NCBI GenBank assembly: GCA_964404925.1
Contig: CAYOLW010000001.1
Coordinates: 2,106 to 66,105 of the forward strand
Length of the DNA stretch: 64,000 nucleotides
Reading direction: 5' to 3'
Origin: an uncultured Candidatus Saccharibacteria bacterium
GTDB lineage: Bacteria > Patescibacteriota > Minisyncoccia > Phycocordibacterales > UBA9973
This document shows positions 6,343 to 28,058 of the stretch, piece by piece. The position numbers and the translations under genes were made by a program. The notes beneath the pieces were generated by a model. That model was not told the origin of the DNA. It did not search any database and saw nothing but the letters and a program-made list of their open reading frames with translations. Positions within the stretch are counted from its first letter, which is position 1, and every line of letters begins with the position of its first letter.

Positions 6343-6759
6343 TTGGGTTATAATTTGAACATGGAAAGGTTTTTACTTTTTATAGTTTTTGTTTCTTTGT
6401 GTTTTTTTGTCTTAAACCATCCAGTTTATGCTCTTGGCACAACTAAAGATTTCGCTGGGCAAATAATTGCAACCAAGGCAATACAAATCGATGCATTAGA
6501 AAAAGGAAATTATACTTGTGTTGTACCAGGCAAAACCATTCAAATTAAAAGTGTTGGAGTAACAGGATACCAACCAGGAGCTTATTTCATACCTTTTAAT
6601 TCACTTGCACGCTGGCGAAGTAACCTAAAAAGGGGAAAACAGATTTTGGGTCAATATAGTGGAAAATTCTCAATTGTGTGCACCTCAAAAACAGTTCCAC
6701 CAACAGTCCAAACCGTAATGCTGCCAATAGTAGGCATGCATGGAACCCCATCAAAATAA
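6343..6759 (+). CDS. Small secreted hypothetical protein (138 aa).
   Basis: A hydrophobic signal-peptide-like N-terminus (LLFIVFVSLCFFVLNHPVYALG) is present. This is the first gene of the co-directional cluster. Confidence 0.45.
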   Translation: MGYNLNMERFLLFIVFVSLCFFVLNHPVYALGTTKDFAGQIIATKAIQIDALEKGNYTCVVPGKTIQIKSVGVTGYQPGAYFIPFNSLARWRSNLKRGKQILGQYSGKFSIVCTSKTVPPTVQTVMLPIVGMHGTPSK

Positions 6760-6766
6760 TTATAAA

Positions 6767-7825
6767 ATGAATTTTTTAAAAAAAATAAAAAAAATTAGAA
6801 TTAGTAAAAGATACAAGAAATATCTACCTAGTAGTAATTTTATACGTGTAGTTGGTAGTGGTGCTGGTTTTATGTTTGTAGTCTTTCTTATCTTTGGATT
6901 CGGTAATAGTTCAAAGAATTTTTTTAACTCAAAAAAACCAATTTTCAATGAAAATACAACAGTAAGTAGCCTGCTCCAGACCGATACAGATAGTGATGGA
7001 GTTTATGATTGGGAAGAAGCACTGTGGGGAACTGATATTAACAAAAAAGCTTCTTTCAACGACATACCAGACTCTGTTTTTATAGAACAAAGAAAGAGCG
7101 CCTTAGGCGTTGAAGGAGAACAAAACAATAAAGTGTTAAATGAAACAGATCAGTTTGCTCGAGAATTCTTTGCTTCTTATTTAGCGCTCAAGACAGCTGG
7201 TCAAGACCAAGAGACAATTAACAAATTTAGCCAGTCTTTAGGTGAAAAGATTAATAACACCAAATTGGTTGATGTCTACAGCGAAGCAAATATAAAAACA
7301 GCACCAGACAATGATTTTGATGCAAAAAAAGACTATTACTTAATCATACAAGCAGCTTTTGAAAAATATAGAGAATTAGGAATTGGGGATGAATTAGATA
7401 TTGTAAATAAAGGACTTTTAAGTTATACACAAGGTCAAACAAAGGTTAATTATGATAGATTAAAAATGATCGGCCAACTCTACCAAGAATTTGCTAAAAT
7501 TGTTATAGATACAAAAGTACCAAAAAGCTACACTGAAGAACACTTGTCGATGGCTAACACAGCTCACAACACGGGTACTGCTGTTTTGTCTATGGCAAAT
7601 GTGATAGATGACCCATTAGTTGGTTTAACTGGACTAAATCAATATGATTTATATAGCGAGGATTTTATTATGTCTGTAAAAAACCTAGAAGATGATCTTT
7701 TAGAAGAAATTGAGTCAACATATGGTATTAATGAGTACAATACAACCAGCAACGAAGACACCGCAACGGAAAAAGACTATTCTAAATACCCAGATGAAGA
7801 AATTGATTATCTTGATGAAGAATAG
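6767..7825 (+). CDS. N-terminally membrane-anchored hypothetical protein with a very acidic C-terminus.
   Basis: I prefer the ATG at 6767 (MNFLKK) because it follows the upstream stop, whereas the listed 6740 start overlaps the previous gene. One transmembrane segment is GAGFMFVVFLIFGFG. The C-terminus is DEEIDYLDEE. Confidence 0.45.
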   Translation: MNFLKKIKKIRISKRYKKYLPSSNFIRVVGSGAGFMFVVFLIFGFGNSSKNFFNSKKPIFNENTTVSSLLQTDTDSDGVYDWEEALWGTDINKKASFNDIPDSVFIEQRKSALGVEGEQNNKVLNETDQFAREFFASYLALKTAGQDQETINKFSQSLGEKINNTKLVDVYSEANIKTAPDNDFDAKKDYYLIIQAAFEKYRELGIGDELDIVNKGLLSYTQGQTKVNYDRLKMIGQLYQEFAKIVIDTKVPKSYTEEHLSMANTAHNTGTAVLSMANVIDDPLVGLTGLNQYDLYSEDFIMSVKNLEDDLLEEIESTYGINEYNTTSNEDTATEKDYSKYPDEEIDYLDEE

Positions 7826-7856
7826 GTGTTTTCGGTTATAAAATTTATAAGTTATA

Positions 7857-10691
7857 ATGGATAGACAAATGCAAAGCAGTATATTCAAAAACATAGTATC
7901 GGCAATGCTGGTTGCACTTTTTGCTTTTGCGCCAATCCTACAAGTAAAAGAAGCCTTAGCACAATCACAGGGTTCATATAGTTATAGTTCAGGGGGTAAT
8001 GCTAGTGGAGGACTCAAGGGTTATGTAAAAGGTCTAGCTCCCGCAATTGCCCAACTTCCATTATGCCAGAAAGCATTAACAGGTCCAGTTAAAAACATGT
8101 TTAAAGGTATTATAAATAAACTTGGAAAAAAAACTGTAGAAAAAATTTTTAGAAGAAAACTGGAAGAAAAATTGGCTGCTCAACAACAGATAAAAGTTGT
8201 AAACCAGGTGGACAATAAAAAACAAGATAAATTATTGTCAAATGCAAAATCACACAATGAAACCGATAGAGAAGCAAACGACAACGACACTTGTTATAAA
8301 TCAATCGGTCGTATGGTGGTTAAAATGATTTTACAGAAAATAACCTTAAGTACTGTAGAATGGATAAAGAATGGTTTTAATGGTGGACCAGCTTTTGTTC
8401 AAAACCCTGGCAGATTCTTTAAAAATATTGCAAAAGAAGAAGTATTGAAATTCGGCATAGAGTTAAATGCTGGAGCTAATTGTCAGGCAGTTTTCTCTGG
8501 AGATATTACTGGTACGAGTGGTGAAAACGATATAAGTAAATGTATATCACCTTTTGCCAAAGCCTATATGATTGGTTTAGCTGAAACATATAATAAAAAG
8601 TTTTCTGATAATGCTAGGTATTCTTTAAACGAACTTATTGCTAATACTACACCTGAGTACACGGCAGCTAGTTTCTCGGCCGATTTTTCGGCTGGTGGAT
8701 GGAACGCCTGGACAGCCATGACAGAAACACCGGCGAATAACCCTGTTGGTTTTACTGTTATATCTGACATAGAAATAGGCAGGAGAACAGATGGTACAAG
8801 TAAATCAACTGCTGAACAAAAGAAAGAAGCCCTAGAACAGTCTCGTGGTTTCCTTGGAGATTATCGTTGTGCTGATCCAGAAGGTCTAACCCAAGAACAA
8901 GACCGAGAGGAACAAGCCAAACCTGAACCAGACCCGGCTAGATTATGTAAACGTTGGGAATATGTTACCCCCGGAGAAACTGTTGCAGAAGCGGCCACAA
9001 AACTTGTTAACTACCAAGATAACAATCTATTAAAAGCCGAAGATTTAAATGACGCAGTAGCTGCTATTGTAGACGCTTTGATAAGTAGATTAATGGGTGA
9101 TGTTATTAATTATGGCCTAGCAGAGTTTTCAGATGAGGGTGCTGATGGTGATTTGATTATCAACAGTTATGCTATAAATGGTAATTATGAGATTGGCCAG
9201 GCTGAAAAAGACTTTCCTCAACACCTGCAAAGCGAGGGGTGGTTAACGGAGCATCCTAATTTTAATATTCGTACAGACTTAACTCAAGCAATAATAGATG
9301 AGCAAAGAACCTATGTAGAAAAACTAGAAAAACAAAACGAATCTCTTGAGAGGTCTATACTCGGAGCTAAACAAGCTGATTATTGTTTACCAGGACCTTC
9401 ATATGATGTTTATACCTCTATTTCTGATACAGATTTGTTTACTAGTTTTAATGATTTTAGTAGTGGTTTTTTAAAAGGTCGTCAAGAATTAACGGAATTT
9501 GCTCTACAATTTAATCAGTGGACAGCTTTCCAAGTAGCTAATGCTAATGGCTTATTTGTTAATAAAGAAAGAATTGCTAAAAAATTAATAGCAACCTATT
9601 TAGGGGTTAACTTTGGAGTACATGTATATGGTGCATATGGTTATTCAAACGAGGAAGATACAAACAGTAGAAACCAAGACCAGGTTTTAAACAAAGAAGA
9701 TATTCTTGGTTTGCAAAGAAATATATTTACTAGCTACCAAGTTTTAATGCACAATATTTATTTCAATGGTGCAAAATCTATAGCGCCAATGCCTTTAGTA
9801 ACTAAAGAAATAAGAAGTGAGTTAAGTAATGTAGGAGCATATCAGGATATAATTAATGAAAATGATGAAATAATTGCTTTAAAAAGATCTGTAATTCAAC
9901 GTTTAGCAGTAATAAAAAACCTCATAGAGGATTTAGGTCCGGTACCTGAACCAAATGACTCTAATTTTATAGAATACGAAGAAGCAATTAAACCCATAAT
10001 CCAAGATTTTGGTCGATTAACAAATGATATGGTAACAGGTGACGATGTAGCTCAAATAGATACAACGCTCAAAGAAACAGAGGACAAAGAAAAATATATT
10101 TTTGAAGATTTGTTAGAGGCATGTGAGCGTGAAATGCTTGATGTTTATGAAAATGACAAAGAGACATATAGCAGGTTTTGGCGAAGACAACCATATAAAG
10201 AACCAATTTTATATTTATATGGCGACAATGTAGGTGTAGATTACATAAGTGTTACAAACCTGAATGTACCAAAAATACCTCAGCAGCCAGACCACAATTC
10301 ATATGATCCCCATTATCATACACAGTGGAGTGAACAAGCTATCAAAAACTGGAATAGAAACGATATGTTTGCTTATGGTAGTTTTTATTGGAACTACTGG
10401 GTACGACCACACGAGGGAGGAGATGCATTTAATCCTAACGATCCAAAAACCCCTAATCCTCCAGATTTAGTAAAAATAAAAAGTAATTTACAAACAACCT
10501 GCCCTGAGTTTATAGATGTTGTATACTTCTCTTACCCTGGAACCAATGAAGGTCCTACAGGAGAAGAAAAAGGTCAGTTACCAAAAGATATTGAAGGTCT
10601 TGAAGCTGATGGACGAGGATACTCAATAAATTATGGAGATAATATTTGTGGTGTTTTGCATACCATTGAAGACCGAGCTAATATATACTAA
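7857..10691 (+). CDS. Large secreted hypothetical protein (944 aa).
   Basis: The N-terminal signal peptide is IVSAMLVALFAFAPILQVKEALAQ. No transmembrane core is apparent and no family is recognised. Confidence 0.5.
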   Translation: MDRQMQSSIFKNIVSAMLVALFAFAPILQVKEALAQSQGSYSYSSGGNASGGLKGYVKGLAPAIAQLPLCQKALTGPVKNMFKGIINKLGKKTVEKIFRRKLEEKLAAQQQIKVVNQVDNKKQDKLLSNAKSHNETDREANDNDTCYKSIGRMVVKMILQKITLSTVEWIKNGFNGGPAFVQNPGRFFKNIAKEEVLKFGIELNAGANCQAVFSGDITGTSGENDISKCISPFAKAYMIGLAETYNKKFSDNARYSLNELIANTTPEYTAASFSADFSAGGWNAWTAMTETPANNPVGFTVISDIEIGRRTDGTSKSTAEQKKEALEQSRGFLGDYRCADPEGLTQEQDREEQAKPEPDPARLCKRWEYVTPGETVAEAATKLVNYQDNNLLKAEDLNDAVAAIVDALISRLMGDVINYGLAEFSDEGADGDLIINSYAINGNYEIGQAEKDFPQHLQSEGWLTEHPNFNIRTDLTQAIIDEQRTYVEKLEKQNESLERSILGAKQADYCLPGPSYDVYTSISDTDLFTSFNDFSSGFLKGRQELTEFALQFNQWTAFQVANANGLFVNKERIAKKLIATYLGVNFGVHVYGAYGYSNEEDTNSRNQDQVLNKEDILGLQRNIFTSYQVLMHNIYFNGAKSIAPMPLVTKEIRSELSNVGAYQDIINENDEIIALKRSVIQRLAVIKNLIEDLGPVPEPNDSNFIEYEEAIKPIIQDFGRLTNDMVTGDDVAQIDTTLKETEDKEKYIFEDLLEACEREMLDVYENDKETYSRFWRRQPYKEPILYLYGDNVGVDYISVTNLNVPKIPQQPDHNSYDPHYHTQWSEQAIKNWNRNDMFAYGSFYWNYWVRPHEGGDAFNPNDPKTPNPPDLVKIKSNLQTTCPEFIDVVYFSYPGTNEGPTGEEKGQLPKDIEGLEADGRGYSINYGDNICGVLHTIEDRANIY

Positions 10692-10696
10692 CTTAA

Positions 10697-13600
10697 ATGT
10701 TTAAACTAAAAACAAAAATTTTATTATCTATCGCGCTATTGTTAACAACAATACCTATAACCACCTTAGCAGCTTTATATGTTGAGGTTATACCAGTAAC
10801 ACAAAAAAATTTAACGAGTGCAACATTGGTTGGGGTACTAATGGATGATGCTTTTCCAACAGGTGTAAGTACTGAGTATGTAAAATTTAGATATACCACA
10901 ACATCCAGTACTTCATGTGCAAACATGACAACCGAAACAGCAGTACAAACAATAAATTTAGATTTCCAATTACATGAATTTTATAATTTTCAACAACAAT
11001 TAAATTCACTTACTCCACACACTAAATATTACTTTTGTGCTGTAGCTTCTAGTGAAGCAGATTTTTCTGCAAACGTTCTTTATAGTGGAATAAGAGATTT
11101 CACAACAGAACTGCCTCCAGACTTGGCAGATAATGTTGTGACAGGTACCGCAAGTAATATAACACAAAACGGTGCAACAATATATGGAGAAATTTACAAT
11201 GATCACAGCACTCCTATATTTGGAAAATTTAAATATTCAGAAAATTATTCTGTTAGTTGCGCATCATTACCTAATGCTATAAACACACCAGTTCAACCTC
11301 CTGGTGGTGTTGGTGCATCATTGTCTCTTAATTTTTCACACACGTTAACTAACCTAAAAAGCAGCACCACATACTCTTATTGTGCTGTCGGTGATACTAA
11401 CTCTGATTTTCCAAATGCAATTTATGGAGAGGTTAAAGTATTTACTACGCCACCTTCTGCTTCTGGTAATCCAGAAGATATTGGACCAGTTGATACGCAA
11501 GAATCTACGGAAATGGATGACAATGAAGTTACTTTGCAAGGTAATTATTCAGGGGGGGCACCTGGTTTTGCATATTTTAGATTAACAAGTGCTACTGTGC
11601 CTCCTCTTTTTTGTAATGATATTTATGGTTCAGATATGATTGGTATAACCTCTAATGAACCAGACCCTATTGGGTATACAACTGGCGGAGATTTTTCTGT
11701 ACATGTTAACGGACTTGAACCAGAAACAACATATTTTTATTGTGCTATTGTTTCTAACAATGCGCTAACAACAAAATTAAATAAATTAACCTATAGGCCT
11801 CAAATAAAATATGGATCAGTTAAATCATTTAGAACTTTACCTTGTTTAACTTGTAATATTACACAAGTAACAACACTTGGTTCAAATGTAATTGATTCAC
11901 AAAGCGTCAATTTAAAAGGTTCTTACAGAACAAGCAGGCCTGTAAAAATATATTTTGAGTATAGTAAAGATTTTGATGTAAGTACCCCGCCCACAAGTGG
12001 TAATGTTTGGATTCCAACAAACCCACCAAAACTTGGAGGTTTTAATTCTTATGGTAACTATAATTTTTTACTTACTGGACTTGATAGCAATACTAAATAC
12101 AGTTTCAGAATAGTTGGAGAATTAGCTATTGGTGGTGAAATAATCTACGGATCTACTCTAGACTTTACAACAGATGCTTATGATGGTGTTGACCCTATAA
12201 TAACAGAAGACCCTGTAGATGATGTTCCAGTTGAACCAGGTGGAGAAGGTGGAGGTGATGATAATTGTCCAGCTGGAACAATAGGTATATTTCCTGATTG
12301 TACTGTTGGTGAAATAGGCTGTCCAGCAGGATATGAAGGAGTGCCACCAGATTGTGTTAATCTGGGAGGAGGAAGCGGGGATGATGACGCACCGGTTGTA
12401 GAAGTAACAGCTGATCCAATATTTGTTGATCCCGGACAGTCTTCTACTATAACTTGGACTTCTACTAATGCGACGTCTTGTGTTTTAAACGGATACGACA
12501 TACCAACATCAGGATCTGCTGATACTGGTGCTCTCAATACGAGTAAATCGTATTCAGTAATTTGTACAGGACCGGGTGGAGTTGGTTCTGATAATGCTCA
12601 AGTCTACGTAAACATAACAGGCGGAGGTGGGGGTGGTGACATTATCTGGGTTAAAGCTTTGGCTGCACCAGTTTTTGTCACAACAAACAGTTCCTCTGTT
12701 GTATCATGGCAATCAAGCGGTGCAGAATTTTGTGAATCTGGTGGACATGGAAATGGTACTAGCGGTTCTTTTAACACTGGACCACTTACTAGTTCAATGT
12801 CCTACACAATTTCTTGTAGTGGACAATCTGGCAGTGCAGCAAGCACTGCATACATAGAAACACATGATCCTGTTACTCCACCATCTTGTTTCGCAGTACC
12901 ACAAACCCAGTCACTACAATGTCCTGCTGGACAGGTAGGTCTGATCTTACAATCTCGCAGTTCAACTTGTCCTGATCCAAACGGTTCTCCTGTTTGGTCA
13001 AATTGGGAGACAGTGACCAACTCTTGTCAGAGTTCAAGTGGTGGTCCAACTCCACCATCTTGTTTCGCAGTACCACAAACCCAGTCACTACAATGTCCTG
13101 CTGGACAGGTAGGTCTGATCTTACAATCTCGCAGTTCAACTTGTCCTGATCCAAACGGTTCTCCTGTTTGGTCAAATTGGGAGACAGTGACCAACTCTTG
13201 TCAGAGTTCAAGTGGTGGTCCAACTCCACCATCTTGTTTCGCAGTACCACAAACCCAGTCACTACAATGTCCTGCTGGACAGGTAGGTCTGATCTTACAA
13301 TCTCGCAGTTCAACTTGTCCTGATCCAAACGGTTCTCCTGTTTGGTCAAATTGGGAGACAGTGACCAACTCTTGTCAGAGTTCAAGTGGTGGTCCTGGAG
13401 GACCAGGTAGTGGAGTGTTTCCACCGGGACCAGGTAATCCATGGAGCCCTACTGGACCCGGAGGCCCTGGCGGCCCCAATGGTAATGGCGGTACAAACCC
13501 AACCCTACCACAAGGACCAGATAACGATGGTGATGGACTTGGTAATCCAAACGATGATGATACAGACGGGGACTGGGATCCAAATGGAACAGATACAGAC

Positions 13601-14239
13601 GATGATGGTGATGGGATTCCTGATTTAGTTGATGCGACTCCAAACGGACCTGGAAATTCTGATGATTTAGACGGTAATGGAGTAGGTAATGACAAAGACA
13701 ATGATATTGATGGTGATGGTGTACCCAACTATCTAGACAACGATACTGATGCAGATGGTATTCCAAATGCTACAGATTCAGACGATGATGGTGATGGGAT
13801 TCCTGATTGGCTTGACCCTTTACCAAAAGGTCCACACGGAGATAAGGTTGGAGTTATTTTGGGGGTAGGGGATGAGGCCATACCACCTTCGGACGCAATC
13901 GTTCATTATAACGAAGGTGTAGAGACTGTTTTTGCTAGACAAATCAGAAATCGCAACAAACTTTCAGAGAAGTTAGGATATTCAGGCAGAGGCAACCTAG
14001 AATCATTTGCTCAAAATATGGCTCATACACTCTCTCGATATTACTTTGGTTATGTTGACGAAAGCGGCAAAGAAGTGCGTGTGTCAGTACCTGATGTTTC
14101 AGCATATGAGTTGAGGATTGTTGGCAACAAATTAGCTGTTTATGAATATTATCGAAACAAAATAATAGATATACGAGTGCAAAGCATCCAATTCAAGAGT
14201 AAGAATCCGTACGAATATTATTTCCAGAAAAGGTTTTAG
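10697..14239 (+). CDS. Giant surface protein or adhesin (1180 aa). It has a signal peptide, repeated Ig/FN3-like modules, three identical 58-aa Cys-containing tandem repeats, thrombospondin-type-3-like Ca-binding Asp-rich repeats and a C-terminal globular domain.
   Basis: The signal peptide is LLSIALLLTTIPITTLAA. Recurrent module endings are YYFCAV, YSYCAVGD, YFYCAI and YSFRIV...FTT. The DxDxDGxxDxxD-type repeats are DNDGDGLGNPNDDDTDGDWDPNGTDTDDDGDGIPD and related copies. Confidence 0.6.
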   Translation: MFKLKTKILLSIALLLTTIPITTLAALYVEVIPVTQKNLTSATLVGVLMDDAFPTGVSTEYVKFRYTTTSSTSCANMTTETAVQTINLDFQLHEFYNFQQQLNSLTPHTKYYFCAVASSEADFSANVLYSGIRDFTTELPPDLADNVVTGTASNITQNGATIYGEIYNDHSTPIFGKFKYSENYSVSCASLPNAINTPVQPPGGVGASLSLNFSHTLTNLKSSTTYSYCAVGDTNSDFPNAIYGEVKVFTTPPSASGNPEDIGPVDTQESTEMDDNEVTLQGNYSGGAPGFAYFRLTSATVPPLFCNDIYGSDMIGITSNEPDPIGYTTGGDFSVHVNGLEPETTYFYCAIVSNNALTTKLNKLTYRPQIKYGSVKSFRTLPCLTCNITQVTTLGSNVIDSQSVNLKGSYRTSRPVKIYFEYSKDFDVSTPPTSGNVWIPTNPPKLGGFNSYGNYNFLLTGLDSNTKYSFRIVGELAIGGEIIYGSTLDFTTDAYDGVDPIITEDPVDDVPVEPGGEGGGDDNCPAGTIGIFPDCTVGEIGCPAGYEGVPPDCVNLGGGSGDDDAPVVEVTADPIFVDPGQSSTITWTSTNATSCVLNGYDIPTSGSADTGALNTSKSYSVICTGPGGVGSDNAQVYVNITGGGGGGDIIWVKALAAPVFVTTNSSSVVSWQSSGAEFCESGGHGNGTSGSFNTGPLTSSMSYTISCSGQSGSAASTAYIETHDPVTPPSCFAVPQTQSLQCPAGQVGLILQSRSSTCPDPNGSPVWSNWETVTNSCQSSSGGPTPPSCFAVPQTQSLQCPAGQVGLILQSRSSTCPDPNGSPVWSNWETVTNSCQSSSGGPTPPSCFAVPQTQSLQCPAGQVGLILQSRSSTCPDPNGSPVWSNWETVTNSCQSSSGGPGGPGSGVFPPGPGNPWSPTGPGGPGGPNGNGGTNPTLPQGPDNDGDGLGNPNDDDTDGDWDPNGTDTDDDGDGIPDLVDATPNGPGNSDDLDGNGVGNDKDNDIDGDGVPNYLDNDTDADGIPNATDSDDDGDGIPDWLDPLPKGPHGDKVGVILGVGDEAIPPSDAIVHYNEGVETVFARQIRNRNKLSEKLGYSGRGNLESFAQNMAHTLSRYYFGYVDESGKEVRVSVPDVSAYELRIVGNKLAVYEYYRNKIIDIRVQSIQFKSKNPYEYYFQKRF
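12875..13396 (+). repeat. Perfect 3 x 174-bp in-frame tandem repeat inside the adhesin gene. Each unit encodes ...PPSCFAVPQTQSLQCPAGQVGLILQSRSSTCPDPNGSPVWSNWETVTNSCQSSSGGPT.
   Basis: The unit boundary actccaccatcttg recurs at 12875, 13049 and 13223. The three units are identical at every base I compared. Confidence 0.9.
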
Positions 14240-14313
14240 TAGATTTGAGTGAATTGTTAGTCTTATAAAATAGTTTTTGTGTAGCTAATTTGATAGAATA
14301 TTATTAGTTACGA

Positions 14314-17049: not shown

Positions 17050-17055
17050 AAATAT

Positions 17056-18036
17056 ATGGATAAAGAAGATTTACAAAAAGTAATAGCAGAATATCACACA
17101 AGGTTGTCACCAAGGCTACAACAAGTTTTCTCTTCGCTTGGCTGGCTAGAAACATTGAAATCAATTGGGGACAGGTACAAACTCGACGATTCTCAAATGA
17201 ACGACCTCTCAATAGAGACAACCATGCTTATGCTTGGGGCTACGCACTGGAGTGACTATGCCAAACATTTGTTTGATGTAATGAAACTACCTCAATCTAA
17301 ACTAGACGAAGTGTTGGGTGAAATAAAAACTTTCGTCTATGGACCAGTAGAAGAAGAATTATCTGACGCTTACTATATTAATGCAATAATTCTAGAAGAG
17401 GTTGAAAAAAACATGGTTGAAGAAGAAAGCAAGTTAGTGCAGGCTGGTCTTGATGAAAGATTCAAGAAACTTGAACCAAGGATTCAGAAAATTGTACAAG
17501 ATTCTAATTATCAAGTTAAAATTTATTCAATTGGTAAAAGGAATAATTTAACCTTTGCCCAAATAACTGAACTAGAAGAAGTTATTACTGAAACAATATT
17601 AGGGAATATTCCCATAGACAAGTTCGAGGGGGAACTAAAAAACCGAGCGAACCTACCCACAGAAAGAATGGATTTTATTGTTAACGAAGTAAACGATAAA
17701 ATCCTTAGAGATATTAGAAGCTCAATCTTAAGTCTGGGTAGGCAGTCTGAAAACAAAGAAAATAGTCTAACTCTAAAACCAAACCATTCTATTTCTAATA
17801 GATTAAACATTAGTATTGAAGCAGAAAAGAAATTAGCCCCAATCGAACCAGAAAAAAAAGAAGAAGTATCCTCCACAAACTCAATCATAGCAGCTAAAAT
17901 GCAAGATTCTTTTAGTATGCCTAAAGTTACAACTGAATATACAATTGGTAAAATAAGCAAAGAATCTGACAAACCAACAACTAATACTGAAGTAAAAAAA
18001 TGGAGTGATCCATACCGCACAGATCCCAACGAATAG
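17056..18036 (+). CDS. Hypothetical soluble protein (326 aa) in the T4SS-like cluster.
   Basis: The ORF is tightly packed against its neighbours and no family is recognised. Confidence 0.4.
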   Translation: MDKEDLQKVIAEYHTRLSPRLQQVFSSLGWLETLKSIGDRYKLDDSQMNDLSIETTMLMLGATHWSDYAKHLFDVMKLPQSKLDEVLGEIKTFVYGPVEEELSDAYYINAIILEEVEKNMVEEESKLVQAGLDERFKKLEPRIQKIVQDSNYQVKIYSIGKRNNLTFAQITELEEVITETILGNIPIDKFEGELKNRANLPTERMDFIVNEVNDKILRDIRSSILSLGRQSENKENSLTLKPNHSISNRLNISIEAEKKLAPIEPEKKEEVSSTNSIIAAKMQDSFSMPKVTTEYTIGKISKESDKPTTNTEVKKWSDPYRTDPNE

Positions 18037-18090
18037 TATCGTTTTAATTCAAATACTTGTATAATAGATAAAGTCCAAAGGACTTTATCT

Positions 18091-18519
18091 ATGCAATTTA
18101 AAGTTCCACAATTTTTAGATATTGAAGACAAGATATTCGGCCCATTTACTTTTAGCGAATTCGTTTATTTAGCAGGAGGGGCAGGTCTGTGTTATGTGCT
18201 TTTTAAATTGCTTGGTTTTTTTGTAGGTTTTGTACCGATACTTTTGGTTGGTGGATTTTCTTTGGCTTTAGTTTTCTATAGACCAAACGGTAAACCTTTT
18301 ATAAATATGGTTGAGAATAGTATTAGTTACTATACTCAAAACAGATTATATGTATGGAAAAGACAAGACAGAAGTGATAATAAAAACAAACAACCAATAA
18401 ACAATGCAGTGTTAACAGAAAATGAACACATAGTTAAATTAAACAAAAGTAAACTTAAGGATTTATCATGGAGTTTAGATGTACTTGATGTTAAAAACAA
18501 AAGTGAAGAAAATATTTAA
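18091..18519 (+). CDS. Small two-TM membrane protein. Its size and its position immediately upstream of VirB4 are VirB3/PrgI-like.
   Basis: Two hydrophobic helices are YLAGGAGLCYVLFKLLGFFVGF and VPILLVGGFSLALVFY. The assignment rests on position alone, without sequence-family support. Confidence 0.3.
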   Translation: MQFKVPQFLDIEDKIFGPFTFSEFVYLAGGAGLCYVLFKLLGFFVGFVPILLVGGFSLALVFYRPNGKPFINMVENSISYYTQNRLYVWKRQDRSDNKNKQPINNAVLTENEHIVKLNKSKLKDLSWSLDVLDVKNKSEENI

Positions 18520-18524
18520 TTAAA

Positions 18525-19175
18525 ATGGCACTAAACGCACGCGCAACTCAAGATTTTGTACCTATCAAAGAAGTAAGAGATGGGGTAATAATGCTAAAAG
18601 ATGGCAGTTTGCGTGCCGTTGTTTTGGCTAATTCTATAAACTTATCTTTAAAATCAGAAGACGAACAAAAAGCTACTATTATGCAATTTCAGTCTTTCTT
18701 GAATACATTAGACTTCCCGGTACAAATTTCTATTCAATCAAGACGTTTAGATATTAGACCTTATTTATTACTCTTGGAGAATCGAGTGAAGGTACAAACA
18801 GAACCCTTGCTTAAAATGCAAACACAGGAATATATGGAGTTTATTCGAAGTTTTACAGATACGGTTAGTATTATGACAAAAAGTTTCTTTGTGGTTGTGC
18901 CGTATACAGAATCGGTGGTAACCGAAAACAGCAATCCTCTATCTAAGCTACTTGCTTTTGGTAATAAAAAAAATGTAGCTTTAGAAGTAGAAATGGATTT
19001 CGAAGAAAAAAGGTCACAACTAGAACAACGTGTTGGTGTTATACAACAAGGTTTGTCTCGATGTGGAATAAAAACAGCACAGCTCGGCACCGAAGAGGTA
19101 ATTGAGGTATTATATAAAGTATTTAATCCAGGCGAATTAGAAGGTAAAATAAAATTAGAAAACACAGAACAGTAA
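18525..19175 (+). CDS. VirB4/TrbE-like N-terminal region (216 aa), encoded as a separate ORF from the ATPase part.
   Basis: The stop TAA at 19173-19175 is followed one nt later by the ATG of the ATPase ORF, in a different frame. Together the two ORFs give 827 aa, a typical VirB4 size. The N-terminal-domain pattern FVPIKEVRDGVIMLKDGSLRAVVL is like Gram-positive VirB4 N-termini. Confidence 0.5.
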   Translation: MALNARATQDFVPIKEVRDGVIMLKDGSLRAVVLANSINLSLKSEDEQKATIMQFQSFLNTLDFPVQISIQSRRLDIRPYLLLLENRVKVQTEPLLKMQTQEYMEFIRSFTDTVSIMTKSFFVVVPYTESVVTENSNPLSKLLAFGNKKNVALEVEMDFEEKRSQLEQRVGVIQQGLSRCGIKTAQLGTEEVIEVLYKVFNPGELEGKIKLENTEQ

Positions 19176-19176
19176 T

Positions 19177-21012
19177 ATGGGATTATTTGATTCAATTTTA
19201 GGTGGTGACAAAACGGACAACAATAAAAAGCCGACAATATTGCCGATACTACCTGAGGAAATACACGAATCAGCGGCACTAGAACTCCAAGACGTAATTG
19301 CGCCTTCAGCTTTAAAAATAAATCCTAAATCTATCAATCTGGGGGATAAAATAGCTCGAACCTTCTTTATTATTTCTTATCCTAGATATTTGGCCGATAA
19401 CTGGTTTTCTCCAATTATTAACTTGGATCAAATTTTTGATGTATCAGTATATGTAAATCCAGTAGACACTTCTTTGGCAATGCGTCAGTTCCAAAAGAAA
19501 GTGGCTGAGGTAGAAAGCCAGATCAATACTCGTGAATCCAAAGGTATTGTACGTGACCCAATGCTAGACACAGCTTACCAGGATTTAGAAGAACTACGAG
19601 ATAAACTTATTCAAGCTCAAGAAAAGATGTTCGATGTAGGTATTTACATAACTATCTATGCTAATAATGAAATGGAGCTTTTTAAGGTTGAGAACGAAGT
19701 AAAATCCATTTTAGAATCAAAATTAATATACATTAAACCAGCCCTTTTCCAGCAAGAAGAAGGTTTTATGAGCGTGGTGCCTGTAGATACCGATAGGCTT
19801 AATATTACCCAGAGATTAAATTCTGAACCACTTTCTTCTGTGTTTCCTTTTATTTCTTTTGACTTAACTTCAGATAAAGGAATATTGTATGGTGTCAATA
19901 GACACAATTCTTCTTTGGTTATTTTTGATCGATTTTCTCTTGAGAACTATAACTCTGTTACTTTTGCTAAATCAGGTAGTGGTAAAAGTTATGCTACAAA
20001 ACTAGAAATTTTACGTAGTCTAATGTTTGATATTGATGTCATTGTCATAGACCCTGAAAGGGAATATGAATTCTTGTCTGAGGCTGTAGGAGGAAGGTAC
20101 TTCAACATCTCTCTTTCCTCAGATCACCACATAAACCCATTTGATTTACCTGTTCCCAGAGAGGACGAAACACCAGAAGACGTATTACGCTCAAATATAA
20201 TTAACTTGGTTGGTTTATTTAGATTGATGCTAGGTGGACTAACACCCGAAGAAGATGCTTTAGTTGACCGGGCGATATCTGAAACATACGCTATTAAAGA
20301 CATTACACCAGACTCTGATTTCACTAATATTGAACCTCCACTTTTGTCTGACTTTGAAATGGTTCTTTCTGGAATGGAAGGTTCTGAGTCTGTTGTGCAG
20401 AGATTGGTAAAATATACCAAAGGTTCTTGGTCCACGTTCATTAACCGACCGTCCAACGTAGATATCAACAAAAAGTTTGTTGTTTTCTCTGTTCGTGATA
20501 TGGAAGATGAATTAAAGCCAATCGCCATGTATATAGTTACTCACTATATATGGAATACAATCCGTAAAAACCTAAAGAAAAGACTTTTAGTAGTGGACGA
20601 GGCTTGGTGGATGATGAAATCTGAAGACACAGCATCTTTCTTGTATTCACTAGCTAAAAGAGGCCGCAAATACTATCTAGGTCTGGCTACAATAACTCAA
20701 GACGCTGCGGACTTTATGAAATCTCCGTACGGTGTACCTATTGTTACCAACTCATCAATCCAAATACTCCTCAAACAATCCCCAAGTACCATTGAAGTGC
20801 TCCAAAAGATATTTAATCTAACCGATGAAGAAAAATATCTTTTACTTGAATCTGGGGTAGGGGAAGGTATATTCTTTGCCGGTTTGAAGCATGTTGCTAT
20901 TAAGGTTGTAGCTTCTTACACAGAAGATCAAATCATTACTTCAGACCCATCACAAATATTGGCTATCAAAAAATCAAAAGACGATTTTGAAGAAGTGTCA
21001 CAAGGAAAGTAA
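19177..21012 (+). CDS. virB4: Type IV secretion/conjugation ATPase VirB4/TrbE/CagE-like (AAA_10/DUF87 type), C-terminal ATPase part.
   Basis: Walker A is AKSGSGKSY and Walker B is LLVVDEAW. The arrangement of RGRKYYLGLATITQD and the C-terminal TEDQI region is typical of VirB4-family ATPases. Confidence 0.85.
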   Translation: MGLFDSILGGDKTDNNKKPTILPILPEEIHESAALELQDVIAPSALKINPKSINLGDKIARTFFIISYPRYLADNWFSPIINLDQIFDVSVYVNPVDTSLAMRQFQKKVAEVESQINTRESKGIVRDPMLDTAYQDLEELRDKLIQAQEKMFDVGIYITIYANNEMELFKVENEVKSILESKLIYIKPALFQQEEGFMSVVPVDTDRLNITQRLNSEPLSSVFPFISFDLTSDKGILYGVNRHNSSLVIFDRFSLENYNSVTFAKSGSGKSYATKLEILRSLMFDIDVIVIDPEREYEFLSEAVGGRYFNISLSSDHHINPFDLPVPREDETPEDVLRSNIINLVGLFRLMLGGLTPEEDALVDRAISETYAIKDITPDSDFTNIEPPLLSDFEMVLSGMEGSESVVQRLVKYTKGSWSTFINRPSNVDINKKFVVFSVRDMEDELKPIAMYIVTHYIWNTIRKNLKKRLLVVDEAWWMMKSEDTASFLYSLAKRGRKYYLGLATITQDAADFMKSPYGVPIVTNSSIQILLKQSPSTIEVLQKIFNLTDEEKYLLLESGVGEGIFFAGLKHVAIKVVASYTEDQIITSDPSQILAIKKSKDDFEEVSQGK

Positions 21013-21023
21013 AGTGTTATAAT

Positions 21024-22037
21024 ATGCAAAGCATGTTTAATAAAAATATGTTAAGAAAAACATCTCTATTAATCTTGGTTTTGTCTTTTATTGTTTCCTT
21101 TACAGGAGTGAACAATGTTTTTGCACAACAAATTCAAGATAACGATATATTGATGAGCGTATATCCCAAATATCCAAAACCAGGGGATAATGTTCGTGTC
21201 TCAATTAACAGTTATACTGTTAATCTTGATAAGTCGTTTATTGTTTGGTCTTTAAATGGGGAAGAAAGGTCTAGGGGAATCGGTAAAAAGACATTTTCTT
21301 TTGACTTAGAAAAAACAAATAGTCAAAATCAGGTTACAGCTTCTATTGATTTGGTGGGTGGTATTACTGTTGTTAAAAGTAATACTATTGTTGCTTCGGA
21401 TATAGACATGCTTTGGGAAGCGGTAGATTCATACGTACCACCATTTTATAGAGGCAAGGCCCTTGGTGTACAAGACGGTAGTTTCAAGATTGTTGCTATA
21501 CCGAGTATTTTGTCCTCTGGTGGAAAAGTAAGCCCTAACAACCTTTCATATGTTTGGAAAAAAGACGGTGATGGCCAAGTAGGCGCTTCTGGTTTTGGTA
21601 AAAATTACCTTATCTTTACTAAAAGCTACCTTGATTCAGAAAACGAAATAGAGGTTGAAGCATCAGATATTGAAGGCAAAGTAAAAACAGGTAATAAAAT
21701 TATGGTGACAGGTTTAAAGAAACCAAAGGTTGTCTTATATAAAAAAGACTCTAAAATAGGCTTTAGATTAAACCAAGCACTGAGTGATAATTATAGTATT
21801 TCCGAACCAACAACAATAATTGCAGTTCCGTACTTCTTTTCTTTTAGCAATATCAATTCAGAGGATATGGCTTTTACCTGGTCAGCGGGCGGTAAACAAA
21901 TACAACCAAACAGAAATAAAAATGAAATAACAGTTATTCCACCCAAAGAAAGGGGTGGTACTGATATTTCATTAGCAGTAGAAAAAGCTAATTCTTTCTA
22001 CCAGAGTGTTAAAAAAAGGATCAATGTTGATTTTTAA
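21024..22037 (+). CDS. Secreted hypothetical protein (337 aa), predicted beta-rich.
   Basis: The signal peptide is LLILVLSFIVSFTGVNNVFAQQ. Confidence 0.45.
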   Translation: MQSMFNKNMLRKTSLLILVLSFIVSFTGVNNVFAQQIQDNDILMSVYPKYPKPGDNVRVSINSYTVNLDKSFIVWSLNGEERSRGIGKKTFSFDLEKTNSQNQVTASIDLVGGITVVKSNTIVASDIDMLWEAVDSYVPPFYRGKALGVQDGSFKIVAIPSILSSGGKVSPNNLSYVWKKDGDGQVGASGFGKNYLIFTKSYLDSENEIEVEASDIEGKVKTGNKIMVTGLKKPKVVLYKKDSKIGFRLNQALSDNYSISEPTTIIAVPYFFSFSNINSEDMAFTWSAGGKQIQPNRNKNEITVIPPKERGGTDISLAVEKANSFYQSVKKRINVDF

Positions 22038-23100
22038 TGAAAAAATAAAAAAGGTTACTGCTTTTATTTTTATACTGTTCTTTTGTGTTGGTTTTATAAT
22101 AAAAACACCTGTAATTATAGCCCAGGACCCTTGCACAACAGATTCAGATGGTGATGGACTTGTGGATGGAATGGATCCAATAAATGATACAACCAGCCAA
22201 ACTAATCCAAATATAATAAATTGTAATGAATTACAAAACACTCAAAATGATAGCGATGTAACATACACACTACTCGAACCTATTGGTGATTTGAGTAAAT
22301 TTAATGCAACTCAACCTTGTCCTTTGGTTGATTATATTAATAAATTTATAAAAATATTCCTTGGTATTTGTGCTGCACTTGCTATGGTGATGATTGTTGT
22401 TGGGGGACTCCAATACATGACCAGTGAATTATTGTCTTCAAAAGAAGCGGGAGTTAAGCAAATTCAAGGCGCGGCTTTTGGTTTTATTATGGCACTGGCC
22501 GCTTATGCTATTTTAAACACCGTTAATGCTGATTTACTTAACTTCTGTCCACACATACCAGATGCAAAAGTAACAGTTGTTGAAGATATAAGTGACGAGG
22601 CAACCACCTTAACAGGTGGAGGTAAAGCAACATACCACCCATACAAAGCTTATTCTCCTAATAATGCTTGCCCAGGACAACCAGGTAAAGAAACAAGCAC
22701 TTGTGTAAAAATGAACACAACTAATTTACCTAAAAAATATGATCAGAGTTTAGAAAAAGACACTCTAGATAAAATGGTAATATTTGATAACATCATGCGT
22801 TCTAAAGGAATTGTATGGTATGTGACTGAAGGGTGGCCAGCATCTAGCTCACATAAATCTAGTTGTCATGGTAATGGAACATGCTTAGACTTAAATACAC
22901 CAAACGCAACACCAGAAACAGTTAAATTAATGATTGGCGGTTTAATAGCTGTTGGTATGTGCCCAAACTATGAAATTTTACAGTCTGGAGGTATTACCAG
23001 GGAACAACTTAATGCTATTGGTATTCCCGATGCACGTATTTGGGTTACCAAAGGTACAGGGGCTCATATACATGTTGTTAATGCTAGGTGTGGTAGTTAA
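22006..23100 (+). CDS. Membrane-anchored cell-wall peptidase. An N-terminal anchor and Asp-rich Ca-binding-like motif are followed by a pilin-like double hydrophobic helix and a C-terminal LAS/M15 (VanY-like) metallopeptidase domain.
   Basis: The M15/LAS signature S-x-H-x-x-G-x-[AC]-x-D appears as SCHGNGTCLD, and HxH appears as GAHIHV near the C-terminus. The TSP3-like motif is TDSDGDGLVDGMDP. The paired hydrophobic helices are FLGICAALAMVMIVVGG and AFGFIMALAAYAIL. The start may instead be the in-frame ATG at 22024. Confidence 0.5.
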   Translation: MLKKGSMLIFNEKIKKVTAFIFILFFCVGFIIKTPVIIAQDPCTTDSDGDGLVDGMDPINDTTSQTNPNIINCNELQNTQNDSDVTYTLLEPIGDLSKFNATQPCPLVDYINKFIKIFLGICAALAMVMIVVGGLQYMTSELLSSKEAGVKQIQGAAFGFIMALAAYAILNTVNADLLNFCPHIPDAKVTVVEDISDEATTLTGGGKATYHPYKAYSPNNACPGQPGKETSTCVKMNTTNLPKKYDQSLEKDTLDKMVIFDNIMRSKGIVWYVTEGWPASSSHKSSCHGNGTCLDLNTPNATPETVKLMIGGLIAVGMCPNYEILQSGGITREQLNAIGIPDARIWVTKGTGAHIHVVNARCGS

Positions 23101-23125
23101 TCTGCTATAATATATTTAAATAAAT

Positions 23126-24442
23126 ATGTCCAAAAAAAATATAATTCTTTTAGCTGTTTTAATACTAATCATTGGACTGGTTGTGCTAGTTGCGTCTTTG
23201 CCTAAAAAAAGCAACGAGCCGGGTAGCGAAGGTGGAACAAACTTTTTCTCTGATTTATTTAATTTAGTTGGATTAAAGAACAAAAACTCTGATGATGGCA
23301 CACCAACCAAAAACATAGGTGGCACACCAGGCGGGGAAGAGGCAAGAGGTTCTTTATTTAAAATGTCTTCAATGCCTGTGGCAGGTTTTGGTGTATTAAA
23401 AAGAGAAGTTTACACTTATGTAGCACCACCAGAAGTAACAGATTTAGCTTCCAGCACTGAAAATGATACCAGAACCAATACTTTAAGTGTTCCAGAAACA
23501 GAATACAAACTAGATGTTAGATATGTTACAGCTGAAAATGGCAGTATCTATCAATATGACATTGAAAACGGACAAGAAAAGAAGTATTCAAGCTCTGTAC
23601 TACCGTATATGTACGAAGCCTTTTTTGGTAAAAATGCCTCATCAATTGCACTCAGATATATATCAGTGAACAAGCCAACAATCGAGACTTTTGTTCGTCA
23701 GTTACCAGAAGACCTACTGGGTTCAGATGCTGAACCTGAGGATAAAATATCTGGTAATTTCTTACCTCAAAACATAAATGATATTTCTATTTCTCCGGAT
23801 GGTATGAATATGTTTTATCTTTTAAAGATTTCATCCGGGATATCCGGCACTGTAGCGTCTTTGTCTGGTGCAAATAAAAACCAGGTGTTTGATTCAAGTT
23901 ATACAGAGTGGCTGTCTCAGTGGCCAAACAAGGATTTAATCACTGTTACGACCAAACCTGCTGCTGGTATTCCAGGTTTTATGTATGGAATCAATCCAAA
24001 CATAAAAGACTTTAAAAAAATATTAGGGGGTGTTAATGGTTTAACCACACTTACTAGCCCAAACGGTAAACTAGTCTTGTACTCTGCCGATGATTTAAAT
24101 CTATACTTATATGACACAGAAGAGAATAATTCAAAAAATTTAAATGTTCGTACATTACCTGAAAAATGTGTTTGGGGTGCATTAAGTGATCGTGTTTTTT
24201 GTGCTGTACCCCAGTATATTAATACTGATAAATACCCGGACTCTTGGTACCAAGGAGAAGTCTCTTTTATAGACTCATTAGAAGAAGTTTCTTTAACAGG
24301 TGGATTGCCTATCACTTTGACAAAAGAAGGGGAGGTTATTGACCCGATAGACGCAATTAAACTAACATTAAGTGAAGATGGCAACTTCTTGTTCTTTATG
24401 AATAAGAAAGATTTATATCTATGGGGTTTGCGTTTAAAATAA
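23126..24442 (+). CDS. N-terminally anchored extracytoplasmic protein (438 aa) with TolB/PD40-like beta-propeller repeat signatures.
   Basis: The transmembrane segment is IILLAVLILIIGLVVLVASL. Repeat-like segments are SPDGMNMFYLL and SPNGKLVLYSADDLNLYLYD. Confidence 0.35.
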   Translation: MSKKNIILLAVLILIIGLVVLVASLPKKSNEPGSEGGTNFFSDLFNLVGLKNKNSDDGTPTKNIGGTPGGEEARGSLFKMSSMPVAGFGVLKREVYTYVAPPEVTDLASSTENDTRTNTLSVPETEYKLDVRYVTAENGSIYQYDIENGQEKKYSSSVLPYMYEAFFGKNASSIALRYISVNKPTIETFVRQLPEDLLGSDAEPEDKISGNFLPQNINDISISPDGMNMFYLLKISSGISGTVASLSGANKNQVFDSSYTEWLSQWPNKDLITVTTKPAAGIPGFMYGINPNIKDFKKILGGVNGLTTLTSPNGKLVLYSADDLNLYLYDTEENNSKNLNVRTLPEKCVWGALSDRVFCAVPQYINTDKYPDSWYQGEVSFIDSLEEVSLTGGLPITLTKEGEVIDPIDAIKLTLSEDGNFLFFMNKKDLYLWGLRLK

Positions 24443-27830: not shown

Positions 27831-28058
27831 CTGTGTATAAAGTGTTTATTTTTAATTAATGTTGTGTTAATTATTTGTTGAAAGAAAATTGTTTTTAGAA
27901 AGTTTTACCAATAGGTGTGTATAAACCAAAATTAACATAACAAGTAATCAACACCACTAATTCAATTCAAATCTTTATAAATAACACATAAAAGATTTAT
28001 CCACTTATCAACACCCCTAATAATATTAATAGATTTAATATATAAAGATATAAACATT
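27831..28058 (+). promoter_or_regulatory. Putative oriC, an AT-rich dnaA-dnaN intergenic region with at least four DnaA-box-like 9-mers.
   Basis: TGTGTATAA (reverse complement TTATACACA) occurs at 27832-27840 and 27916-27924. TTATCCACT is at 27997-28005 and TTATCAACA at 28005-28013. The region also has AT-rich tracts. Confidence 0.55.

Follow-up and report, generated by a model that had tools for sequence, protein, structure and literature searches.

The window analysed here, a 64-kb stretch of DNA from a Paceibacteria (Nomurabacteria-like) genome, carries at positions 6343-24442 a gene cluster that is very probably a vertically inherited, non-conjugative T4SS (type IV secretion system) of the Patescibacteria clade, lying close to the replication origin (oriC); it would serve contact-dependent exchange with a host, with a peptidase fused to the pilin in the role of VirB1. 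The system would originate from the MPF_FATA conjugation machinery of monoderm bacteria. The cluster is one more member of this clade and not a new system, because two earlier studies (Wang et al. 2023, PMC10633639; Quinonero-Coronel et al. 2025, PMC12102498) already describe it, its dnaA/rnpA/ksgA neighbourhood included; an earlier description of this DNA made from the letters alone (the sequence-only reading) had called it an 'orphan', but an unrecognised one it is not. Two quantitative features characterize the locus: its motor ATPase is more conserved than DnaA, and the hydrolase borne by its only pilin belongs to one of at least 19 types that replace each other between species. The swapped pilin tails are the point that goes beyond the published accounts we found.

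A conserved secretion locus close to a probable oriC

Twelve co-directional open reading frames (ORFs) on the + strand make up the cluster in the ORF list; their lengths and order are given in Table 1. Neighbouring genes overlap by up to 32 bp or are separated by up to 74 bp, in agreement with the tight packing on one strand already described, and the count of thirteen genes given earlier is reached only if rsmA is included. Ten of the genes are conserved and two, encoding the 138- and 1180-amino-acid (aa) proteins, are variable. The reality of the cluster is confirmed, far beyond chance, because hidden Markov model (HMM) matches reach E-values down to 1e-110 and about 80 species representatives show the same gene order. 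A scan for promoters and terminators returned the same counts as shuffled sequences and gave no operon information. Hydropathy analysis detected signal-like N-termini in the 138-, 944-, 1180- and 337-aa proteins, which corroborates the proposal that these four are secreted, one N-terminal transmembrane (TM) segment in each of the 361- and 438-aa proteins, and no TM segment in the 216-, 611- and 326-aa proteins. Three proteins had been described as N-terminally anchored: this holds for the 361- and 438-aa proteins, but the third, the 364-aa protein, has a signal peptide followed by a two-helix pilin hairpin.

The loci used for comparison were obtained by scanning 185,579 species genomes for VirB4; this yielded 589 relatives, the best 80 of which were examined, all from Paceibacteria, Nomurabacteria or "Patescibacteria" metagenome-assembled genomes (MAGs). 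Wherever the contig reaches, the order rsmA-361-944-(1180)-911-326-PrgI-TrsD-VirB4-337-pilin-438-jag-yidC-rnpA-dnaA-dnaN-pbp was found in about 80 species representatives (numbers are protein lengths in aa), so that synteny across related genomes, which the sequence-only reading had named as a check, is well established in Paceibacteria. In the window, genes for UvrD and RsmA lie upstream of the cluster, and those for Jag, YidC and RnpA, on the - strand, lie downstream, followed by DnaA, DnaN and a class A penicillin-binding protein (PBP1). Because five DnaA-box-like 9-mers are clustered at 27779-28013 in the AT-rich dnaA-dnaN spacer (GC content 0.25), oriC is probably located there, about 3.4 kb from the end of the cluster.

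Sequence conservation along the locus was very uneven. The median tblastn identity to the window was 82.5% for VirB4, 77.6% for DnaA, 68.8% for TrsD, 64.2% for DnaN, 60.9% for YidC and 53.4% for PrgI, VirB4 being better conserved than DnaA (26484-27830), DnaN and YidC in the same loci. Lower values were obtained for the pilin (40.1%) and for the 438-aa (39.4%), 337-aa (34.2%), 911-aa (32.6%), 326-aa (30.7%), 361-aa and 944-aa (27.9% each) proteins. The cytoplasmic motor is very strongly constrained, and the exposed parts evolve fast. The GC content of the cluster matches that of its flanks except inside the variable 1180-aa gene, at 12-14 kb, where it rises to 0.45 against about 0.36 around it.

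The orientation of the locus deserves a separate mention. The 18-kb operon is transcribed toward the probable oriC, and its orientation is unchanged in about 80 species; for an operon under such high constraint this is unusual. It would therefore run head-on to the leftward replication fork, and it is convergent with jag-yidC-rnpA.

The homologies of the components support the minimal Gram-positive-type T4SS core proposed in the sequence-only reading, namely VirB3-, VirB4- and VirB6-like proteins together with a cell-wall hydrolase. The 611-aa ATPase scored 368 bits with the NCBIfam model conju_CD1110 (curated cut-off 325 bits, E 7.8e-110) and also matched Pfam P-loop_TraG (E 1e-23), AAA_10 and DUF87; with a Walker A motif (AKSGSGKS) at residue 264 and a Walker B motif (LLVVDE) at residue 470, it is a VirB4-family ATPase as originally described. 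It is 75-91% identical to hundreds of proteins from Paceibacteria/Patescibacteria MAGs and 29-36% identical to its best matches, all from monoderms, among 2982 plasmid records. Judged by its nearest neighbours, VirB4 thus appears to group with the Patescibacteria clade and not with VirB4 proteins of plasmids or of integrative and conjugative elements (ICEs). A phmmer search of the window with VirB4 found only VirB4 itself.

The 216-aa ORF that precedes virB4 matches four VirB4/TrsD models over their N-terminal 130-200 positions, namely VirB4_plasma (E 4.5e-12), TrsD (1.8e-6), CD1110 (3e-6) and VirB4_CagE, with E-values ranging up to 1e-4. Its scores are below the cut-offs of the full-length models, as expected of a fragment. 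This TrsD-like gene is a separate ORF just upstream of virB4 in 80/80 loci, and a frameshift artefact behind the split was ruled out because the split is common to all these loci. The 142-aa protein passed the Pfam PrgI cut-off (29.6 bits, cut-off 27, E 1e-6) and has a TM hairpin at residues 24-61 by hydropathy, in keeping with the two-TM protein in VirB3 position noted earlier; PrgI was detected by tblastn in 76/80 loci.

The channel subunit was more difficult to assign. Hydropathy analysis of the 911-aa protein showed an N-terminal hydrophobic segment and about seven TM segments between residues 266 and 536. Its layout comprises a signal/TM1 segment, an fn3 ectodomain (about 50-195), a TM helical bundle (215-526), a cytoplasmic helical domain (532-872) and a Gly/His tail, and its AlphaFold2 (AF2) model, built from 96 sequences, has a mean predicted local distance difference test score (pLDDT) of 76, with the membrane core above 90. 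No direct match to Pfam, NCBIfam or PDB sequences was obtained for this protein, and the Pfam scan of 41 of its orthologues gave no TrbL match. Two distant homologues, P0221 (E 2.5e-18) and P0223 (E 1.4e-16), do pass the Pfam TrbL/VirB6 cut-off (29.9 and 28.5 bits, cut-off 25.9), and the TrbL-bearing part of P0221 aligns to residues 226-542 of the 911-aa protein with an E-value of 1e-26. The predicted fold gave weak Foldseek matches to TrwI/VirB6 and DotA (E 0.18), and comparison with the VirB6 protein CD1112 by hhalign was suggestive at most (E 0.016, probability 3%). Linked in this way through its distant homologues, the 911-aa protein is probably a channel subunit of the VirB6/TrbL type, in line with the VirB6-like topology originally proposed.

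The pilin-peptidase and its exchangeable tails

The 364-aa protein (358 aa from the database start at 22024) contains, in order, a signal peptide, a short Asp-rich segment, a VirB2-like pilin hairpin (residues 86-179, nucleotides 22261-22542) and a C-terminal Hedgehog/DD-peptidase domain (residues 182-364, nucleotides 22549-23097). It scored 30.5 bits with Pfam T4SS_pilin (cut-off 26.6), matched the NCBIfam Mbov_0395 pilin-like model with an E-value of 6.5e-5, and is the sole ORF of the window with a pilin domain. In the AF2 model, the helices of the hairpin span residues 106-139 and 143-172, and the tail has a pLDDT of 80-95. The sequence-only reading had described a plain anchored hydrolase with a LAS/M15 domain. 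The fusion to a VirB2-like pilin was therefore overlooked, and the domain call stands at the superfamily level but not as a Pfam M15 match.

As a single sequence, the tail reached only an E-value of about 1 with Hedgehog N-domains, and it matched none of the Pfam M15, VanY or HH_signal models. Its four best PDB matches by Foldseek, however, were the N-domains of Sonic and Desert Hedgehog (Shh and Dhh; E 4.7e-3 to 1.5e-2, probability 0.91-1.0). When 1.84 billion representatives were searched exhaustively with HMMER, 221 relatives of the tail were recovered at E<=0.001, and a 25-sequence tail profile matched the N-domains of Shh, Dhh and Indian Hedgehog (Ihh) with E-values from 3.4e-6 to 1e-3, the alignment spanning the TEGW...H...H-x6-D...YE core. 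Residues E275, H283, H288, D295, E323 and H354 (numbering of the window protein) are invariant in the tail family and include a Zn-ligand-type pattern formed by H288-x6-D295, E323 and H354, the latter within H-I-H. The pilin domain was also present in 120/124 near-full-length relatives carrying the Hedgehog-like tail. Hedgehog N-domains are themselves LAS/Hh-DD-peptidase zinc peptidases, a subgroup of M15A that has bacterial peptidoglycan peptidases among its members (PMC6027127, PMC8052667, PMC4102407). Because the AF2/Foldseek fold, the tail relatives found with HMMER and the profile comparison with Hedgehog agree, the tail is confirmed, at the superfamily level, as a predicted LAS/Hedgehog-type (M15A-like) zinc peptidase domain. 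A BLAST comparison with the M15_4 and VanY tails of the proteins P0242 and P0243 showed no similarity.

The tail of the window protein is one among many. In a set of 41 syntenic pilin orthologues, Pfam T4SS_pilin was detected in 37/41 and TrbC in 15/41, and the tail domains identified were NlpC/P60 (10), Amidase_5 (5), YkuD (4), VanY (4), SLT_2 (2) and CHAP (2) domains, with Amidase_2, Peptidase_M15_4 and Extensin-like_C found once each. The tails of 65 syntenic orthologues clustered into 19 mutually unrelated groups. The exchange can be abrupt: P0233 is 77% identical to the 364-aa protein over residues 7-198 and then continues with a YkuD domain. Tail-type sharing is nearly independent of VirB4 relatedness, as pairs with the same tail amounted to 9/46 at a VirB4 identity of >=90%, 62/572 at 85-90% and 89/1001 at <80%.

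A conserved N-terminal part with exchangeable C-terminal domains recalls toxins with cognate immunity genes. No such gene was found directly downstream of the pilin gene, the next gene being the conserved homologue of the 438-aa protein. As this gene follows within <=26 bp in most loci (25 bp in the window), an immunity gene could not be accommodated, and a classical toxin-immunity reading of the swapped tails was ruled out.

Pilin-hydrolase fusions are not mentioned in the main text of PMC12102498 (term search), and the literature search returned no other paper on them. We tentatively consider, as a possible if doubtful extension, that the sole pilin is a carrier of interchangeable peptidoglycan-cleaving domains that breach the host wall at contact, the type of tail tracking the chemistry of the host wall and not the phylogeny of the symbiont. 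The tail would then be shown on a pilus-like fibre or at the mouth of the channel, or be freed at the conserved NP.LL junction. If this is true, the host range of uncultured Paceibacteria would be predictable from the tail type encoded in their genomes, and tails acting on host walls would offer a handle on function through their muropeptide specificity.

Accessory proteins and surrounding genes

Direct scans with Pfam and NCBIfam found nothing for the 138-, 361-, 944-, 326-, 337- and 438-aa proteins, as for the 911-aa protein, and profile searches against PDB sequences found nothing for the 911-, 337-, 944-, 361- and 326-aa proteins. The 361-, 944-, 326-, 337- and 438-aa proteins are thus five conserved accessory proteins without a known family, four of the envelope and one cytoplasmic, which agrees with the previous remark that most neighbours of the core have no recognisable family. 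The profiles of the 326-, 438- and 337-aa proteins also showed no similarity by hhalign to the unnamed genes of the Clostridium CD1110 transfer region.

Table 1. Features of the T4SS cluster in the window, in order along the + strand.
Feature	Coordinates	Strand	Basis
138-aa small exported protein, TTG start	6343..6759	+	signal-like N-terminus
361-aa bitopic membrane protein, acidic ectodomain, TSP3-like Asp-rich Ca-binding motif	6740..7825	+	
944-aa exported protein	7857..10691	+	signal-like N-terminus
1180-aa exported surface protein, adhesin-like, variable	10697..14239	+	Pfam Pur_ac_phosph_N/fn3
Perfect 3 x 174-bp tandem repeat within the ORF of the 1180-aa protein	12875..13395	+	Tandem Repeats Finder (TRF), 100% matches, score 1042
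911-aa extended VirB6/TrbL-like polytopic channel protein	14314..17049	+	
326-aa cytoplasmic protein, two helical repeats	17056..18036	+	no TM segment
142-aa PrgI-family (VirB3-like) two-TM protein	18091..18519	+	Pfam PrgI
216-aa TrsD-like protein, VirB4 N-terminal domain as its own gene	18525..19175	+	HMM matches
611-aa VirB4 ATPase, CD1110 (MPF_FATA) type, motor of the system	19177..21012	+	NCBIfam conju_CD1110
337-aa exported protein	21024..22037	+	signal-like N-terminus
364-aa pilin-peptidase	22006..23100	+	Pfam T4SS_pilin; AF2; Foldseek
438-aa bitopic membrane protein, probable TolB/PD40-like beta-propeller ectodomain	23126..24442	+	

The 361-aa protein was found at the same position in 36 loci, with its TM segment at residues 34-52, and W91 is invariant in its family inside a D..DWEE..LWGTD motif. 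TSP3_bac matched three members of a mixed set of 361- and 326-aa proteins, and although the scan does not tell which members these were, we assign the matches to the 361-aa family because of this motif. The TSP_3 check suggested by the sequence-only reading was therefore positive in the mixed set and negative for the window 361-aa protein itself, which has no direct match. The 326-aa protein, encoded between the VirB6-like and PrgI genes, was found at the same position in 46 loci; an invariant D-P-Y at its extreme C-terminus (D318, P319 and Y320, in 'K.DPYRE') could be a docking peptide or a secretion signal.

The 944-aa protein was found at the same position in 47 loci, with a conserved core at about residues 150-340. 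No Pfam family was detected across 35 of its orthologues, and it had no adhesin signature. In the 1180-aa protein, repeats of fn3, Cys-rich and Asp-rich (TSP3-like) type occur; those of the N-terminal part are variable, whereas the C-terminus forms a conserved module of about 125 aa, with 50-55% identity over region 1052-1180. The gene is present in only 14/80 loci. The giant adhesins of the sequence-only reading are plausible only for this optional 1180-aa protein, with its fn3 repeats. The 174-bp tandem repeat within its gene encodes three identical Cys-containing units of 58 aa and may reflect either a recent expansion or a collapse or expansion in the assembly. The other variable gene, the 138-aa ORF, was detected by tblastn in 2/80 loci and is not a conserved member of the cluster; the gap between rsmA and the 361-aa gene is <100 bp in most relatives.

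Downstream of virB4, the 337-aa protein was found at the same position in 76/80 loci, and the 438-aa protein, which has its TM segment at residues 6-24, in 67 loci. The profile of the 438-aa family matched TolB weakly (E 0.006). A Pfam scan of a mixed set of both families detected PD40 in four members and PG_binding_1 in two, and is silent on which members; these matches were assigned to the 438-aa family because of the TolB match. The same scan detected PKD_3 in three members and BiPBP_C in one, both of Ig type, which can be assigned to neither family.

The rest of the window is made of housekeeping genes, including RuvCB, PolA, UvrABC, Fpg, a P-type ATPase and others, and a lone PilB-like ATPase. 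The latter (34824-36521, - strand) matched T2SSE with an E-value of 8e-111, so that the orphan PilB ATPase reported at this position is real; it is isolated, flanked by a LOG/SLOG-family gene and by polA, and no pilC, pilM or pilN was found in the window. An SLT-like lipoprotein had also been reported at 39565, but the 346-aa ORF located there (39565-40605, + strand) had no Pfam match. Finally, an 827-aa ORF upstream of uvrD (491-2974, + strand) had no Pfam family at E<=0.001.

Proposed function, alternatives and known systems

The VirB4 proteins of Patescibacteria form a monophyletic clade that falls within MPF_FATA and occurs in about 80% of genomes; TrsD, PrgI, VirB6 and VirB2-like pilins are encoded near virB4, there are hardly any relaxases, and the virB4 gene of Paceibacteria is a close neighbour of dnaA, dnaN, rnpA, ksgA and rpmH (PMC12102498). 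Transposon sequencing (Tn-seq) showed that the T4SS of a saccharibacterium is essential when it grows as an epibiont, and neither a coupling protein nor a relaxase is recognisable in this system (PMC10633639). A 2025 review speculated that such a T4SS is a pilus-like conduit through which exchange with the host takes place (PMC12857230).

From these accounts and our data, we infer the following for the assembly of the machine, its substrates and a host-directed role, i.e., transfer at host contact and not conjugation. The TrsD-like N-domain and the CD1110-type VirB4 motor would dock at the membrane through PrgI/VirB3 and the 911-aa protein, forming a translocon in the cytoplasmic membrane. The VirB2-like pilin would be exported by Sec and inserted as a two-helix hairpin with both ends outside, which would make its C-terminal peptidase domain extracellular; such a placement is also predicted by the positive-inside rule, because the Lys-rich loop between the helices would be cytoplasmic. 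As suggested by its sequence and model, the peptidase domain would cut peptide links of peptidoglycan, the role of VirB1, and might be displayed on a pilus-like structure or released from it. The 361-, 944-, 337- and 438-aa proteins may form a lineage-specific wall-spanning or surface part, with the 326-aa protein as a cytoplasmic partner and the fn3-repeat 1180-aa protein as an optional adhesin. The whole machine would mediate contact-dependent exchange with the host, by protein export and/or uptake of host molecules, without conjugation of DNA.

Several points weigh against host exchange by such a T4SS. The VirB6 assignment is indirect, given the lack of a direct HMM match, the Foldseek E-value of 0.18 and the hhalign probability of 3%, and no VirB8-like protein was identified, the 361-, 337- and 438-aa proteins having no sequence or profile match to one; VirB8 has been found in few Patescibacteria (PMC12102498). 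A pilin with a globular tail of 185 aa may fail to polymerise unless it is processed. The function proposed in Paceibacteria is extrapolated from a single species of Saccharibacteria, and some cultivated relatives of Paceibacteria are reported to have archaeal hosts (PMC12102498, introduction), which would weaken a role of the hydrolase on host peptidoglycan. Moreover, a type IV coupling protein (T4CP) or a relaxase could lie elsewhere in the genome, as the scope here is 64 kb.

Among the possible alternatives, a remnant or active ICE, or a plasmid-derived transfer region moving DNA between cells, would be consistent with the assignment of VirB4 to the CD1110 conjugation family, with a core order collinear with that of a Clostridium plasmid transfer region and with the occurrence of relaxases in about 3% of Patescibacteria genomes (PMC12102498). 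However, the position beside oriC is constant, the flanks being identical in about 80 species, the GC content is that of the flanks, and a VirB4 more conserved than DnaA is the pattern of a core gene and not of a mobile element. No relaxase, T4CP (VirD4/TcpA) or integrase was found among the scanned window ORFs of >=216 aa, which bears out their absence as first described, and no tRNA-adjacent junction was found in the window, whose two tRNAs are >18 kb from the cluster. An ICE, which the sequence-only reading had named among the findings that would overturn its own view, is thus extremely improbable; it was rejected because the synteny is fixed, the composition is that of the flanks and no mobility genes were found in the window. 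A missing relaxase and T4CP would also be compatible with a DNA-uptake (competence) machine like H. pylori ComB or archaeal Ced, feeding a nucleotide-auxotrophic cell. DNA importers based on T4SSs do exist, and VirB4 has a weak match to CedB (E 3.6e-10), but at 39 bits it is far under the cut-off of 700, and no gene for ComEC or a DNA-binding receptor lies beside the cluster in the window. In addition, competence of S. epibionticum needs type IV pili and ComEC, and comEC is dispensable for viability, in contrast to the essential T4SS (PMC12857230). DNA uptake, offered as one role by the sequence-only reading, was therefore judged quite unlikely in view of Saccharibacteria genetics and the sub-threshold CedB score.

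Two further readings concern what is done at the cell surface. We give equally little credence to an adhesion-only organelle, i.e., a VirB4-powered pilus or surface fibre for host attachment through which no substrate passes: the VirB2-like pilin, the fn3-repeat surface protein, the fast evolution of the exposed parts and the lack of a T4CP for substrate recruitment would fit, but the domain borne by the sole pilin is bulky and enzymatic, the adhesin-like 1180-aa gene can be dispensed with (absent from 66/80 loci), and the large conserved cytoplasmic domain of the VirB6-like protein, together with the conserved cytoplasmic 326-aa partner, suggests substrate handling. The machine could also be directed at the cell itself: it would export and position surface proteins and the enzymes that remodel the cell's own wall, in the service of growth or division and not of host interaction. 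The housekeeping, oriC-proximal setting beside yidC and the PBP1 gene, a wall hydrolase tethered in the membrane of its producer with no immunity gene, and PG_binding_1 in two members of the mixed 438+337 scan all favour this possibility. It nevertheless appears unlikely, as 19 unrelated tail types shuffled independently of phylogeny are hard to square with a conserved wall of one's own; the known essentiality is in epibiotic co-culture (PMC10633639), though this setting cannot separate the two readings. A T4SS for contact-dependent host exchange is therefore retained as the preferred reading. The T4SSs of Patescibacteria are among the few machines known to be essential to the epibiotic life of a very large uncultured group, and the window provides a clean reference anatomy for Paceibacteria, with its ten conserved and two variable genes and its split VirB4.

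When compared to the published Patescibacteria-clade T4SS (PMC12102498), the locus shares a virB4 gene with a TrsD-like gene next to it and a VirB2-like pilin encoded nearby, PrgI/VirB3 and a VirB6-like protein, the lack of a nearby relaxase or T4CP, and the dnaA, dnaN, rnpA and ksgA/rsmA neighbourhood. There is no difference at the level of the system; the single pilin fused to a hydrolase whose type varies between species, the 361-, 944-, 326-, 337- and 438-aa accessory proteins and an operon pointing to oriC are absent from the main text of that study (term search). With the T4SS of Southlakia epibionticum ML1 (SEML1_0006-0019; PMC10633639), it has in common the proximity to oriC, VirB4 (612 aa there), a small partner preceding it, PrgI, VirB6/TrbL-like proteins with helical cytoplasmic domains (of about 1000 aa there), pilins (PF18895 there) and wall hydrolases beside virB4, and neither has a recognisable coupling protein or relaxase. 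S. epibionticum, for which alone essentiality is established, has an array of six separate small pilins, a separate triple lysozyme-like protein (SEML1_0006) and an NTF2-like (VirB8-like) protein; the window has a single pilin, fused to a LAS peptidase, and no VirB8-like protein was identified in it by sequence or profile.

Among conjugative T4SSs of monoderms, whose VirB4 proteins are 29-36% identical to that of the window, itself above the CD1110 cut-off, the C. botulinum plasmid pCDC3875 (CD1110/CTn2-pCF10 type, MPF_FATA) has the full core VirD4-x-VirB6-PrgI-x-VirB4-x-SLT hydrolase and thus shares the order VirB6/TrbL-PrgI-(x)-VirB4-(x)-peptidoglycan hydrolase. Only the plasmid encodes a VirD4-like T4CP (CD1115), a MOBP relaxase, an unsplit VirB4 of 797 aa and a short VirB6 of 260 aa; it has no pilin, its SLT-type hydrolase is not fused to one, and it is mobile, whereas the window cluster is fixed at oriC. 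Polymorphic toxin systems resemble the pilin family in combining a conserved N-terminal module, here signal peptide and pilin, with a replaceable C-terminal enzymatic domain. Unlike these toxins, the pilins have no adjacent immunity gene, and their identified tails are all peptidoglycan-active and not nucleases or deaminases. Finally, the tail of the window protein shares with Hedgehog/DD-peptidases the core motif, the fold match and the invariant residues, and differs from them in that about 25 residues are inserted after the catalytic Glu and ahead of the last His, and in that it is almost only found attached to VirB2-like pilins.

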